DNA of 63,657 nucleotides, filler included, from Collodictyon triciliatum (GCA_043381765.1; 6 parts of 6 records of this genome joined end to end with filler, not necessarily neighbours in it), one strand, 5' to 3'. Shown: positions 29,653 to 55,000, counted from the first letter of the whole stretch. Notes: a model not told the origin generated them from the letters alone. Numbers and translations: made by a program.

Positions 29653-29675
29653 CTTTGAATCGAATAAAGGGAAAA
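29653..29675 (+). mobile_element. Ultra-short insertion, copy 4
   Basis: CTTTGAATCGAATAAAGGGAAAA between AAGTACAATAATGACA (29637-29652) and AAGTTCAATAGTGACA (29676-29691). Confidence 0.88.
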
Positions 29676-30056
29676 AAGTTCAATAGTGACACTCATCCAC
29701 AGAATAGGGGCTTTGAAGTGGGAGGTAATTTTATCGTGAGTTCAGCAATGTTGTTGGGTGCTACATCAGTATCTGTGCAGAAGGACAAGGTGGTGGTTTT
29801 TCGAATGGAAAGGCTCGTGTCAAGAGCGAAAGTCGATGAGAAGAGGCGAGTTTCACTACTGGTATTTTATGCTATTAATCATCGTGTTTAAAAGACGAAA
29901 ATAATCCGCCAGAGAGCGAAGTAGTTATATATACTTTTTCAGCTTTAAGCGAGGACGGATTTCAATCGTAGCGGTATAAGGCTCGGCTTTGCCATTATTT
30001 GCATGATTATGAGACAAAGCATTCATGATTAGCATCCCTACAGCCCTTTAATAACA

Positions 30057-30237
30057 GACCATGCGTTTCGGGGTTCTGTCATGGAACGCTAGGGGGAATA
30101 ACGACCCCCACAGGCGGAAAGAGGTTTATCAAGACAGCTCTTTTCACCCGCGCGGATATCATCTGTCTTCAAGAGACGTGGCAGAGCCCTGAGACCCAAT
30201 CTACTGATTTCGGGTGGAAGGGCCCTCAGCTATGGTC
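30057..30237. ncRNA. Candidate structured RNA of unknown family
   Basis: Several nested complementary segments closed by GACCAT/ATGGTC (detailed in findings). No family recognised. Confidence 0.3.
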
Positions 30238-30358
30238 ACCATCATTATCACCATCACANNNNNNNNNNNNNNNNNNNNNNNNNNNNNNNNNNNNNNNNNN
30301 NNTTAATTAATTAANNNNNNNNNNNNNNNNNNNNNNNNNNNNNNNNNNNNNNNNNNNN

Positions 30359-30472
30359 ATAAAGAGATAAAGAGATAAAGAGATAAAGAGATAAAGAGAT
30401 AAAGAGATAAAGAGATAAAGAGATAAAGAGATAAAGAGATAAAGAGATAAAGAGATAAAGAGATAAAGAGAT
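30359..30472. repeat. (ATAAAGAG)n octamer repeat at a contig edge
   Basis: Direct reading. Confidence 0.9.
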
Positions 30473-49962: not shown

Positions 49963-51238
49963 ACATTCGCAAAAGTTGTAGAAGGGAATAACATGAATAG
50001 TACTCTGCTCGTCGATACGACAAGTCCAGATGGGGACTGGATAGGAGAATCGAAGGGGTACAAGCAACGACCTGCATATAGCTTCACTTTATCAGCCACA
50101 CAAGCCGCTGGAATAAACAAATGAGTTAAAATCTCATTATAGCGCCGAACAGCAGACCCTATGCCCTTGGATATAAAAGTCAGAGTACTGGTTACAACGC
50201 GCTGTGTGGTATCAATTTAATAGTATTTGCAGTAGTATATATTTACACAAATATTACATATAATAATGAAGATATATACTTAATTTTTATCCATACAATA
50301 TTCATAATCAATATATTCCACAAATAATTATTTCCGTGGCGTCATATGTTCGAGAAGGTTCGCCAGCTTCTATTTATAGCCCTGTATCAATCATTTCTCA
50401 CCAAAAACATATTCCACATTAATCGACACGGCCAAAGCGAAAATTTCTTTATAATTCAATGAAATTTACTGTTAAAGACCTTTTATACCAAATTTAAGTA
50501 AAAAATATTTAAAAAAGATATTGCTTTGTACTATCCTCAATTTGGTCATATGAACTAAGAACCAATATGATGAAACGAAAAGACACAGGGATTTAGTAAA
50601 TTCCCATAATGAATTCAAGAGTATATGTATGAAAAGAAAAAAGCCATCAAGTAGGGAAAAAAAGTGATTGGTAGAATATTAATGAGAGTCCGCGAATCAG
50701 AAAGGGACGAATATCAAACTGCATCAATGCCACAAAGAATCACCCGCCTGTCAAACAAAGCAAAGCAATTATTCCATCCAACCCAACCAAAGAACAAAGG
50801 CGTGACCGAATTGTGCGTGTCCCTTGGCATTGACCCACTCTTTCCCAAGCCCGCGGTATTTGAGACAGCCCATCCGCACTTGATTCTGGCCAGGGTATAT
50901 AAAGGCCTTGCAGAAACCCACAGGAGAATATCTGTCTTCCTCCGATCAGAAGCAAAGCGCTATTGACACGAGGCAGCCCCCGGCGGATCATCTACACAGC
51001 AAGACGTGGCAAATCGCCCGCTCACCGGCAGACCATACCACCACCCTGCTTTCGCCGAAAATTCGCTGTCTCACGGGGCATTGCGGAATAGTCTCCCACC
51101 CTATCGCGACTTGTCTCCGCCGCTCGCATACTTAAGCGCAATCCACGCCCACACCCCAACCTTTCAGACCGCAAACCGAGCCTCCTCTTGGAAAGCCTCT
51201 CACCTGCCCAACCTCTCCCCAGTCGTAGCCGAGCCGCC

Positions 51239-51693
51239 ATGTCCGAATCCGAAGCCGCCCCTGCCCCTGCCCCTGCCGTCGTCGAGGACCACATCTCCGT
51301 CGAGGCCGCCAAGAAGTGTAAGCCTTCCTCTCCCAACAGAAAGCAGCCTCGTCTAACCTTGAGGAAGAGGCCTATCCATTTGTCCCGCTTCCTGAGCTAG
51401 CGACTTTTGAGTGAATGAAAGCATTTCTCGAGAAATCGCTTAGTTGCAGAACCAGAGACTGAGGGGGAACCTAACCCTTCCTTATACACACAGCGCTCGA
51501 TGTCAAGCTCGGCCACCGCCCGGACCGCAAGGATCTCGTCGACCACCACATCCTCCACGACTCTCACCTTGCCCCTGCCCTCCAGGCCAAGGCTGAGGAG
51601 CTCGCCAAGCAGCAGACTGCCGATGCCCTTGCCAAGGCTCTTGAGCACCGCCCCTCTGAGGACCAACTCCGCGAGAAGAAGATCCTCGAATAA
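51239..51693 (+). CDS. Small RPEL-repeat (G-actin-binding motif) protein, 92 aa, 2 exons
   Basis: Exons 51239-51317 and 51494-51693 give ..SLDVKLGHRPDRKDLVDHHIL..ALAKALEHRPSEDQLREKKILE*, two RPEL-like motifs. Strong C/G third-position bias. Confidence 0.88.
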
Positions 51694-52080
51694 ACGCGGA
51701 GCCGGTTTGCAGCACATCCCCTGGAAAAAAAAAATGAAGAAACCCGCTGTTTTTCTTTCATCCCTTTCCTGCCCTGCCCAAAAACAAAAACTGCCTGTCA
51801 GCGTAACATTGTCCCGATCGTGCTTCTCCTAGAGGCCGGCCGAACATGTCCCTCTCTCTCCTTTCACCCAAGTCCCTCTCCGTCTACCTGCTGGTTTGAT
51901 TAAAAAAATAAAAAGAAAAAGAGGAAAGAAAGATGTCTGATAACGAAGCGAATCCCTTAAGCAAAACACTGATTCATTTTTTGGGTCGCTGCCTCTGCCA
52001 ACGCGGCCGTCTAGTCTCTAAGAGCTCAACCCGCTTGCACCTGCGGCCTTGTAGCGAGGCGGCTCTGCTCTACAAGTCTG

Positions 52081-55000
52081 ATGCACGGCCAGCGATCGCT
52101 CTCGGCCTCCAGTAGTCTTGGGCAGAGAGAGTCTTCGCGCCCGAGCAGCTCCGGCCTTGGCAGAAACCCTGCGTCTTTTGGGGGTTCGACTATGCGTGGG
52201 TTTAGTCGCAGTGCTGCGGCCTCGCAGATTCATGCTTCGTCGTCGGCTTCGTCTGGTTCGCTAGGAAGCACATTATCACGCGGGCTGATCTCTGTGCACT
52301 CGGGCGACTTGTACAGGCAAATGATGAATCCTTCGCCGCAGAAGCAGGCGGATCTCTTACCAGTTTGGTTTTTTTTTTGTTTCTTGCTTTTGTTTATTTT
52401 TGTTTTTGTTTTCTTGTTTAATTTTGTTTATTTTTGTTTGTTTTTTGCCTTTATTTATTTATTTATTTATTTATTTATTTATTTATTTATTTATTTATTT
52501 ATTTATTTATTTATTTCTCTATCCACGGTCTACTTCAGGACTTCGTTACCAAAGAGAATGACACGACAGAGGGTGAACTTGATTTCTTCTGCTTTTTCTT
52601 TTCAAAACAAAGAAGTATCAATTTTGTGCTATGAAATTCTCAATCGATTGTTATAATTCTTGTTTTAGTGAAAGGGACATTAAAGTAGATTACACAATAC
52701 TTATAGATACATCGCCTCTGACTGAAGCAGAAGGAGTGTTTTGGTTTCAGCCGACAGTAACAGGAATCCCACCGACTGCTCGCGCTTTTCACGCCAGCGC
52801 CAGAATCGGGAGCAAACTATTCTTCTTTGGGGGATTAACAAGCAATGGCCCCACCTGTGACCTTTTTGTTTTAGATACGAGTACGTTGCGATTTATAATT
52901 CATTTAGTCGGTCATTATGAACTCTCGTATTAGTCTCATGAATAGTTTTTCATAGAATACGTATTTTTTTTGTCTCTAAAAAAGGCTTTTTTCTGGATTC
53001 AGTCTCTATGTCATGGAGTCAGCCGACATCACTGGGTTCTTCACCATCGCCGAGGTATAAACACACAATGACATCATTTGATAGGAAAGTAATTGTAATC
53101 GGCGGAGAAGATGGAAGGAGGCGCTTGGAAGATGTATATGTTCTTGATACGGGTACGAATTTGCGATGAAATATTGACATTGTGCTCCCCTACTTTTTTG
53201 AGGGATGGTCCTATCATCGTTATAATTGGCTGCTATTTTATCTAAATTCCTTATTGATGTCTTTTTCCAAAAAAAAATTCTATATCAGATGCGTATGTCT
53301 TCAAATTGAAAGAAAGGATATAATCATAATCATAATCATAATCATAATCATAATCATAATCATAATCATAAAAATCAAGATTAACAATATCAACATCAAT
53401 AACAACACCAACATAATAGTAATAATCATAATAATAACAATAGTATAAAGATAAAAAGATACATAGTTGAATATGCTGAAGAGATTTCGCGTGCTTGTAT
53501 AATATTTATACATTTTCCCCATCTAGAATGCTCTCCGATGACATGGGCACGATATGCAAGTAACGCTCCCACAGACATGAGTGGCCATAGCGCAGTATTA
53601 TCAGGAAGTAATATAATCGTTCTAACAAAAAAGCGCGGAATGTCGAATTGTTGTGAGACTTATTTTTTTAACATCGGTAAGTTGACGTCAGGAATAAAAG
53701 AAATAAAGAAAAAAAGACAGGAAAATACGGAAACCTAAAATTCCCAATAAGACATCGCCTATAAACATGCTTTCTCTTATGTATAAAATCTCCTTGTGTG
53801 TATGATATGGTTCGATCGATGCTTAAATACGATAAAATAAAAATATGGAGCATTCGTTCTTCTTGCGTTTGACCATCAGTCTCTCGCTCGTGCCTTTGCA
53901 GGAAAAGGAACATGGTCCGCAAATCCAGCATTACTCGGTACTATTCCCCTTGCCCGTCGGGGTCATTCTGCGGCCATCGCAGGGAAACGTATGCTTGTCT
54001 TTGGTGGCAGAAGAGATATGCACGATGTCGACGTGGTCTGTTTCCATACAGGTATCCATTTTTCTCATTCACAGACATATATTCGTAATACGGCATGCAT
54101 GCACAGAAGCTTATCAATATTCAATTTTCTGCTAATCTCATAATTCCAGAGGAGATGAGGTGGTCAACATACACATATCGCAAAGGCGCAGTTCCCATGT
54201 CAAAGACGAACCACACATGCACTGTAGTTGATAATCATTTAGTTGTGATTGGAGGACAATCCTGCGGAGTTACAGATATGAAATCAACTACATCACCATC
54301 ATTTACAGACACGTTTGTCCTCAACACAAGTAATCACGCTCAATTCTTTATACATATTCGTATATTTTGGATTTCAAATGCTTTTTTTATTCCCCTTTAA
54401 TCGATTCAAAGTGGATTGGAAATACTTGGCGGAACACATTTCTCTATTTAGGAGAATGGTAGAAAGGGAGATAAGGATACTCTAGCTACCAGTTTAATAT
54501 CTACATTTTCACTTTCTCTTATTAAAAAGAAACGATGATATGGCACCAGCCGATTGTGTTAAGGAACTCACCACCAGCGTTACACGGCCACACAGCAAAT
54601 AGAATGGGCTCATATATATTCGTTTTTGGTGGTTTGTTTTTTTTTATATCCATCATATTCTTGAATAGTATTAGTTTTTCCCTTCACTTGTTGAAATCAA
54701 CATCCCGTATGCATAATTTGTGACTAGGTGTTGTCACAAATGGCCAATCACACCAATACACCGGCTCTATTTATATCCTCCAACTAGGTTTTTTTTTCAA
54801 CACACGACATTATCCGGCTCCCTATTTTATAATAAAATATTACCCATGATTGCTTTAATACAGTTTAGTGGTTGCTAATGCTTGCTTTCGCCTTACTAAA
54901 CGAAGTCCTAATAATCATATATTGTTGCATATTCCTACGGCGTTTATTTTATGTTATTTTTCCTTATATTATCAAATCCTTTTTGTTTTGTTTTGTTTTG

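Follow-up and report, generated by a model that had tools for sequence, protein, structure and literature searches.

A family of 22-28 nt insertions in Collodictyon triciliatum DNA, probably 3' stubs of an L1-like LINE

Stringent LINEs such as eel UnaL2, with its partner UnaSINE1, mobilize a short tail at the 3' end of the LINE RNA, and this tail is sufficient for copying; SINEs share such tails with their partner LINEs. Telomerase, with its template boundary, and R2-type enzymes, with template-end jumping, copy a short defined stretch to a fixed stop and sometimes leave extra bases at the junction. R2 and group II reverse transcriptases (RTs) add extra bases when they reach the end of a template. 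LINE template switching also yields the human U6-L1 chimeric retrocopies. MGL-LINE chimeras in Magnaporthe are likewise template-switch retrocopies, according to one report (PMC2104539). The truncation points of human L1 are spread over kilobases, and ~80% of the junctions of randomly 5'-truncated copies show microhomology, according to a second report (PMC2912911).

The insertions described here come from a window of 63,657 nucleotides, filler included, of Collodictyon triciliatum DNA, and they combine features of these systems. Like 5'-truncated human and primate L1 copies, they have a 3' A-run, variable target duplications (TSDs) of 12-17 bp and a T|A-type nick, they are dead on arrival, and the ORF2 relatives of their apparent source are most similar to human L1 ORF2p. 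Unlike human L1, nine of ten copies have their ends clustered in a 6-nt span that lies just 18 nt from the A-run, with microhomology at two of seven junctions, and the TSDs do not begin with the A-tract of the L1 TT|AAAA consensus. They resemble UnaL2/UnaSINE1 in being a mobilized short LINE 3' tail, but they lack a pol III head or body; each stub is the tail alone, so that renewed transcription at the new site could not reproduce its 5' end. An apparent fixed template stop and occasional extra junction bases recall telomerase and R2, although no boundary helix is found and the enzyme is L1-like, not telomerase or R2. Chimeric retrocopies also contain very short LINE 3' pieces, linked to other sequence in a single event of target-primed reverse transcription (TPRT), whereas eight of the nine short stubs directly abut the target duplication with no second RNA copy; copy H is a possible exception.

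Census and source element

The 17-nt core CTTTGAATCGAATAAAG occurs at nine sites with no more than 2 mismatches, four of them exact, against 0.04 expected from 100 shuffles. The sites lie at 28988, 29653 and 45772 on the plus strand and at 14402, 20911, 54395, 56051, 59794 and 60347 on the minus strand. A tenth copy, J, has the variant core CTTTGAAACGAATGAGGG (27609-27633, minus strand) and a perfect 13-bp TSD. All ten (A to J) share one architecture, the core followed by two to four Gs and a short A-run, and nine, all except copy H, have TSDs of 12-17 bp with unrelated flanks. The A-run stands directly before the TSD, which is the anatomy of TPRT. By TSD coordinates the base before the nick is T in five of nine copies; assigning the first As of the A-run to the TSD instead turns six junctions (A to E and G) into T|A.

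Nine of the ten copies are short, with inserts of 22-28 nt in which the A-run is the variable part and the template position is constant; copy B is longer. No stubs shorter than the common form were found, and all six sites with TAAAGG, an optional G and at least four As reach at least TTGAATCG. A fuzzy scan allowing up to 4 errors gave 20 matches against 23 in shuffles, with A-run plus TSD in the known copies only. The sample is small (ten copies in a single window, plus a metagenome contig and a protein trace), and the count of 10 copies per 62 kb of non-N sequence is unsafe to extrapolate as a density because the window is joined from ~15-kb pieces. A separate short retrocopy of 67-68 nt, outside this family, lies at 37878-37970 with a TSD and A10.

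The apparent source is a LINE on metagenome contig L002, where the identical 18 nt followed by A10 terminate a short 3'UTR behind a zf-RVT ORF. L002 is one of four metagenome matches to the motif; the other three were dismissed as chance matches to coding DNA that lack the CT, the A-run and the TSD alike. The ORF ends ...ITDFFPVLASPR ~95 nt before the 18-nt tail and A10, and the element RNA ends ...GCTACA|CTTTGAATCGAATAAAGG-poly(A). Positions 552-1157 of the minus strand match Pfam zf-RVT (PF13966; E 1.5e-7, 32.4 bits, cutoff 27.5), so the ORF, which carries a frameshift, has the C-terminal CCHC/zf-RVT domain of the L1 superfamily. The contig is 1157 bp and holds at least 1046 nt of the element, its end cutting off the rest, so that any APE and RT domains would lie beyond it. 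A phmmer search of 1.84e9 proteins with the ORF returned 14 matches, four of them full-length (P0009-P0012, 1226-1275 aa, ~30% identity). All four contain Exo_endo_phos and RVT_1, three have zf-RVT below the Pfam cutoff, and the closest solved relative of P0009 is human LINE-1 ORF2p (E 3.4e-57). These relatives suggest that ORF2 of the source element has an L1-like AP-endonuclease/RT architecture with a C-terminal zinc knuckle.

Copy B (20904..20953, minus strand) connects the insertions to this element. Its 50 nt comprise TT, 24 nt of LINE 3'UTR (TTTGTATGGCATAACCACGCTGCA), the 18-nt tail and A6, between perfect 15-bp TSDs at 20954-20968 and 20889-20903, and it is colinear with the 3' end of the RT-encoding element, matching the L002 reverse complement 1005-1053 at 47 of 49 nt (96%). 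Since the upstream 24 nt of copy B are L002 3'UTR, the insertions are very likely 3' stubs of one LINE made by TPRT. No other L002-like DNA or protein was found elsewhere in the window, nor was the LINE body. The initial annotation had set a continuous ladder of longer copies with one upstream sequence against a discrete template. The shared upstream sequence is present in copy B (42 nt of element) and in L002 (at least 1046 nt); the continuity is not, nine copies having the short form and one a longer one.

The 5' boundary

Mapped on the L002 reverse complement, the 5' ends of nine of the ten copies fall at element positions 1026-1031, bearing out an earlier proposal of a fixed, non-random boundary. 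Even with ends spread uniformly over just the final 50 nt, such clustering would have a probability of ~4e-7 after correction.

Three ends are unambiguous and lie at the C of CTTTG, position 1029. Stub A (14395..14418, minus strand; 24 nt, CTTTGAATCGAATAAAGG + A6) is preceded by TT where the element has CA and is flanked by TSDs at 14419-14435 and 14378-14394 (17 bp, 2 mismatches). Stub E (45772..45796, plus strand; 25 nt) sits between perfect 17-bp TSDs at 45755-45771 and 45797-45813. Stub J (25 nt, CTTTGAAACGAATGAGGGAAAAATG; TSDs at 27634-27646 and 27596-27608) matches L002 at 87%; with three core differences yet an intact TSD, it probably derives from a variant source element. Two junctions show microhomology. 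In stub D (29653..29675, plus strand; 23 nt; TSDs at 29637-29652 and 29676-29691, 16 bp, 2 mismatches) a 5-nt overlap, ACACT, leaves the end anywhere from 1026 to 1031, and in stub F (54384..54411, minus strand; 28 nt, CTTTGAATCGATTAAAGGGGAATAAAAA; TSDs at 54412-54427 and 54368-54383, 16 bp, 3 mismatches) a 2-nt overlap, CA, gives 1027-1029. The initial annotation had A, D, E and F (cores at 14402, 29653, 45772 and 54395) starting at CTTTG beside the upstream TSD, as they do; J does likewise.

The remaining short copies are less tidy. Stub C (28988..29011, plus strand; 24 nt, TTTTGAATCGAAAAAAGGGGAAAT) is decayed and ends at 1030, with TSDs at 28976-28987 and 29012-29023 identical at 9 of 12 positions. 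Stub G (56043..56068, minus strand; 26 nt; TSDs at 56069-56081 and 56030-56042, 13 bp, 2 mismatches) begins ATG + TTGAATCG, so that its start has either mutated or gained 2-3 nucleotides, and ends at 1031; it lies 55 nt downstream of a tRNA-Arg(TCT) gene (55915-55988, plus strand) on the opposite strand. Stub I (60342..60363, minus strand; 22 nt, CC + TTGAATCGAATAAAGG + A4-5) also ends at 1031, within an (ATT)n tract that makes its ~12-bp TSD imprecise. Stub H (59787..59810, minus strand; 24 nt, CTTTGAATCGAATTAAGG + A6) ends at 1028-1029; no TSD was found in the 3 kb searched upstream, and no upstream feature was seen. The 5' flanks of B, C and H had been described as mutually unrelated. They are unrelated to each other, but the extra 24 nt of B are LINE 3'UTR, C actually starts at the core (TTTTG) beside its decayed 12-bp TSD, and H has no detectable TSD.

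The heterogeneous 5' truncation that is a hallmark of LINEs is thus not seen, with nine ends at 1026-1031 and one at ~1005, which makes ordinary truncation less likely and leaves LINE derivation as probable as before. At the ~80% rate reported for human L1 (PMC2912911), the probability of microhomology at two or fewer of the seven assessable junctions is 0.005. Such rare microhomology suggests that annealing did not select the end, and a predetermined rather than random 5' end is likely. The A-run varies in length while the template position stays, which argues against a simple length ruler. Copy B starts at a second CTTTG-like motif (CTTTGTATGG), 24-25 nt upstream of the common boundary; both boundaries fall at CTTTG(T/A)AT, and the two units agree at 12 of 15 positions, although this is a single event with a chance of ~0.12 of landing within 1 nt. 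Non-matching bases (2-3) appear at the junctions of two or three copies: G (ATG/TG), I (CC) and B (TT).

Folding does not account for the boundary. An internal fold-back and a structured stop had been suggested, but the 18-, 24- and 26-nt forms all gave 0 kcal/mol, whether taken as RNA or as DNA, and did not outperform shuffles, and the core shares only its CTTT/AAAG ends and TCGA center with its reverse complement. No hairpin is predicted upstream of the boundary (last 161 nt of the LINE against shuffles, z = -0.23). The two best Rfam matches on L002 reach 17.6 and 16.4 bits, where the gathering scores of their families are 48 and 40, and both overlap the ORF from the opposite strand; the 3'UTR and tail of L002 contain no tRNA-like element. 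In the window, tRNA-Arg is the only Rfam match at the gathering threshold. No SINE pol III head is present on the inserts, which start at the tail itself. These predictions lend no support to a stable structure or known RNA family as a roadblock at or upstream of the boundary, and this lack weighs against an RT stop.

Routes to a uniform end

The hallmarks suggest the following course. An endonuclease would nick the target, mostly at T|A, the freed T-rich 3' end would prime on the A-run, the last 18 nt would be reverse-transcribed, and sealing of the 5' junction to the upstream target would generate the 12-17 bp duplication. A sequence- or protein-defined stop would halt first-strand synthesis at a template boundary immediately 5' of the tail and so fix the cDNA end at a single template position, the C of CTTTG, give or take a ragged 2 nt. 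Most integration attempts would then abort after ~18 nt, and occasional read-through may run on until it meets another such motif, which copy B exemplifies. We give about an even chance to this reading, in which the copies derive, dead on arrival, from the 3' end of a single L1-like LINE whose first-strand synthesis ends at a predetermined boundary; an RT stop, rather than a pre-cut RNA, would claim about half of what remains. A broader formulation is held tentatively: a hard template boundary 18 nt from the poly(A) of an L1-like element, or an equivalent trimmed RNA of 18 nt plus poly(A), may turn most integration attempts into a uniform ~24-nt scar with an AATAAA signal.

The same fixed boundary is expected if the LINE RNA is cut or trimmed to an RT-bound fragment of 18 nt plus poly(A) and copied to its very end, each stub being a "full-length" copy of a tiny RNA. 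A 5'-to-3' exonuclease could degrade the RNA down to a protein footprint on the poly(A) and tail, with which the ragged ends at 1029-1031 are compatible, or a sequence-specific cut could fall before CUUUG. The extra, non-templated-looking bases at the junctions of G, I and B favor a pre-cut RNA over an RT stop, and microhomology at chance level, as reported for full-length human L1 and Alu (PMC2912911), also fits. However, the ACACT overlap of copy D spans the boundary and suggests that cDNA or template reached at least 1026, a guide-RNA-directed cut is expected at many element positions rather than one, and the boundary is retained in variant J, whose tail differs, pointing to an intrinsic property of the element. 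This alternative is possible but less probable than a predetermined end of first-strand synthesis.

Other explanations fare worse. A tiny retroposon independent of the LINE, driven by a master gene of its own and with a tail that the LINE shares or has captured, would suit the 9:1 ratio of short to longer copies, and the second, diverged tail motif in the LINE 3'UTR would fit capture or duplication. It is improbable: no candidate master locus appears among the copies in the window, nine being TSD-flanked and H lacking an upstream feature, none of the ten has a promoter-like head, and the sole nearby tRNA gene is on the strand opposite stub G. It would also need an 18-nt polyadenylated primary transcript, for which no biogenesis route is known. 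Ordinary random truncation, with a compact genome losing its longer copies to selection or deletion, is slightly less probable still. It accords with the absence of the LINE body from the window, and the 67-68 nt retrocopy at 37878-37970 means that short retrocopies are not unique to this family. Selection on length, however, cannot put nine of ten ends in one 6-nt zone or purge every stub below 16 nt, and microhomology is too rare for ends chosen by annealing. The initial annotation also raised a spliced-leader-like tag on the opposite strand (T-run...TTTATTCGATTCAAAG), for which the sole favorable point is that this strand ends in AG. On the genomic anatomy, which is that of a LINE 3' end, A-run and TSDs, this reading has a negligible chance: in L002 the motif is the 3' terminus of the LINE 3'UTR followed by A10, the A-run side of the copies is always bounded by a TSD without an mRNA body, and the polarity of TSD and A-run fixes the transcribed strand as CTTTG...AAAGG(A)n.

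Inserts of 22-28 nt fall below the reach of normal repeat masking. If the density in the window were typical, the genome would hold thousands of stubs, each with its own target duplication, and most with an AATAAA hexamer capable of influencing how host 3' ends form. A sharp stop near the priming site gives access to the stage of LINE integration that is least understood, in which initiation on poly(A) passes to processive copying and the 5' junction is sealed. Weighing the number of stubs against that of long copies would show how often integration of this element fails. If the hard boundary or the trimmed RNA is real, the stubs would be the smallest discrete retroposed unit known and a natural genomic counter of abortive TPRT, invisible to standard repeat annotation.

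A further trace lies in protein P0013, which has 14 extra aa (42 nt) when compared with P0001 and L002. This insert can be read as a stub in antisense together with a duplication of EREIN, and may be an independent instance of the same kind of insertion.

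Short insertions and their genomic context

The 17-nt core CTTTGAATCGAATAAAG has nine matches in the window at two or fewer mismatches, four of them exact, against 0.04 in shuffled sequence. Once turned to a common orientation, every copy is followed 3' by two to four Gs and then a short A-run, and in eight of nine core copies the A-run leads into a repeat of the sequence adjoining the copy's upstream side. A tenth, variant copy (J, 27609-27633, minus strand), detected by searching for A-runs that lead into short direct repeats, carries three core differences (CTTTGAAACGAATGAGGG) and a perfect 13-bp duplication. 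Insert length is 22-28 nt in the nine short copies and 50 nt in copy B (20904-20953). The flanking duplications span 12-17 bp, and copy H (59787-59810) has none within 3 kb. A fuzzy scan of the window with four errors allowed returned no further credible copies (20 matches vs. 23 in shuffles).

The window itself is eukaryotic, with WD40, TPR_12, Kelch, HMG, and ERMP1-like open reading frames; a search for relatives of the last gave no match. Five to 18% of its sampled words are shared with four sequencing runs (two from organisms, two from freshwater metagenomes), an overlap that is not evidence of habitat. Tandem 185-bp units at 17085-18108 (+) encode TPR_12 repeats, and tandem 135-bp units at 31549-32392 encode WD40 repeats. 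At 31124-33460 (-), a 778-aa ORF without introns carries WD40 repeats toward its C-terminus; its N-terminal third matches mostly metagenome and bacterial-MAG pentapeptide-repeat proteins, which suggests that a bacterial-like gene sits here among eukaryotic ones, possibly through horizontal acquisition. Five identical N44-TTAATTAATTAA-N44 spacers, an all-frame stop linker (15080-15179, 30259-30358, 45427-45526, 60578-60677, and 62012-62111), join the separate contigs that make up the window, four of which are ~15.07 kb long, so adjacency across spacers and density estimates are unreliable. No reverse-transcriptase ORF was found among the 98 (95 + 3) scanned of the window's 112 stop-to-stop ORFs of at least 90 aa, the other 14 being low-complexity or overlapping frames.

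The tail of an L1-like LINE as template

A scan of metagenome contigs with TTGAATCGAATAAAGGRAAAA yielded four loci, three of which are chance matches within unrelated coding DNA. Viral contigs gave no matches to the motif, and three bacterial matches among genome contigs are all due to chance, lacking the CT, the A-run context, and a target-site duplication (TSD). The fourth metagenome locus, on the minus strand of the 1157-bp contig L002, has the sequence ...CCCCTTTGTATGGCATAACCTCGCTACA|CTTTGAATCGAATAAAGG, then A10 and an AT-rich flank, and an ORF ends ~95 nt upstream of this tail. The ORF matches Pfam zf-RVT (E 1.5e-7, exceeding the curated cutoff), the zinc-binding C-terminal domain of L1-type reverse transcriptases, and is frameshifted relative to its close relatives. 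An exhaustive phmmer search with the ORF gives 14 matches, including one 98%-identical fragment and four full-length relatives of 1226-1275 aa at ~30% identity. All four of these contain Exo_endo_phos and RVT_1, and three contain zf-RVT below Pfam's cutoff. Human LINE-1 ORF2p is the best solved relative of one full-length protein (E 3.4e-57), and the L002 ORF is 28% identical to the ORF2p C-terminal domain. A word-index search with the LINE protein found no match among longer proteins, and a search for related loci in viral contigs found none.

Copy B ties the window to this element. By BLASTN of L002 against the window, the bases upstream of its core, described as unrelated in the initial annotation, are LINE 3'UTR (49 nt, 96% identical); the rest of L002 is absent from the window as DNA or protein. 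These matches identify the micro-insertions as the 3' end of an L1-like LINE, and their A-runs and variable duplications are hallmarks of target-primed reverse transcription (TPRT). The same LINE-tail anatomy speaks against the spliced-leader-like tag once offered as an alternative. The once mysterious template turns out to be an ordinary one, which leaves the sharp boundary as the point of interest.

Copies of the LINE itself are also targets of the stubs, which in this way find entry into gene predictions. Relative to the protein P0001 and to L002, the predicted public-library protein P0013 has a 14-aa insert at residues ~70-83 that reads as an antisense stub (IFFSFIQFK) and a duplicated EREIN, and its translation runs directly through the stub. 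This insert is an eleventh, independent instance of the short form, inside a copy of the LINE.

A fixed template position for the 5' boundary

The initial annotation proposed a fixed 5' boundary, and mapping the copies onto the LINE bears this out. In reverse-complement coordinates of L002, which place the C of CTTTG at 1029, copies A, E, and J end unambiguously at 1029 and copy C at 1030. Copies G and I end at 1031, preceded by 2-3 non-matching bases. Copy D has an ambiguous junction (1026-1031) with a 5-nt overlap, ACACT, with its target; copy F lies at 1027-1029 with the overlap CA, and copy H at 1028-1029. Copy B ends at ~1005, with TT before it. Nine of ten ends therefore fall within one 6-nt zone (1026-1031), with a corrected probability of ~4e-7 if ends were uniform over the last 50 nt. 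No shorter stubs occur, as all six TAAAGG + A-run sites reach at least TTGAATCG. The template position stays constant while the A-run and total length vary, which argues against a simple length ruler.

In how they work, these insertions resemble 5'-truncated L1 insertions, and they belong to an L1-like LINE; they differ in lacking the heterogeneous truncation usual for L1. Keyword searches of the literature, with subscription journals outside their coverage, recovered no description of a fixed LINE truncation point this near the tail, and within the same coverage the motif and its fragments appear in no relevant paper. The accessible portion of a rotifer transposable element paper (PMC7943196) mentions no such stubs.

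Termination or a pre-cut RNA

Microhomology is present at two of seven assessable junctions (A, B, D, E, F, G, and J; the duplication is decayed in C, missing in H, and within a simple repeat in I). For human L1, one report (PMC2912911) gives ~80% microhomology at truncated junctions and chance levels at full-length L1 and Alu. Two or fewer of seven would be expected at that rate with p = 0.005, in a cross-species comparison of a small sample. On this comparison the stub end seems to be set in advance and not picked by annealing.

The structured stop suggested in the initial annotation finds no support in prediction. The core had been called quasi-palindromic but forms no meaningful palindrome; in register, only CTTT/AAAG is common to it and its reverse complement. 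Predicted folding energies are 0 kcal/mol for the 18-, 24-, and 26-nt forms, whether RNA or DNA. Over its final 161 nt the LINE folds no more stably than shuffled sequence (z = -0.23), and a search of L002 for a roadblock found no tRNA-like element or credible ribozyme or Rfam family.

The favored mechanism is that first-strand synthesis would terminate at a boundary immediately 5' of the tail, defined by sequence or by a protein. The LINE 3'UTR contains two adjacent ~25-nt units with similar starts, CTTTGTATGGCATAA and CTTTGAATCGAATAA (12/15 identical; L002 102-154, minus strand, reverse complement 1004-1056), whose similarity suggests an old tail duplication. Stubs begin at the second unit and copy B at the first. 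Termination is preferred because variant J keeps the boundary, because the overlap of copy D extends upstream of 1029, and because the sole read-through copy, B, stops at another motif resembling the first. The main rival is an 18-nt + poly(A) RNA, pre-cut or exonuclease-trimmed, on which copying would run to the template end. Such an RNA would account equally well or better for the additional bases seen at three junctions and for microhomology being at chance level. Termination and a pre-cut RNA predict identical genomic scars.

Two further observations concern insertion in the window. Stub G lies 55 nt downstream of a tRNA-Arg(TCT) gene (55915-55988, +), on the opposite strand, a single case from which tRNA targeting cannot be claimed. 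The minus strand at 37878-37970 carries a 67-68-nt insert with no relation to the stubs; it ends in AATAAA...A10, has a ~13-15-bp duplication (TA[C/A]CATTGAGAAATA), and resembles a further very short retrocopy of the TPRT type, derived from a different RNA.
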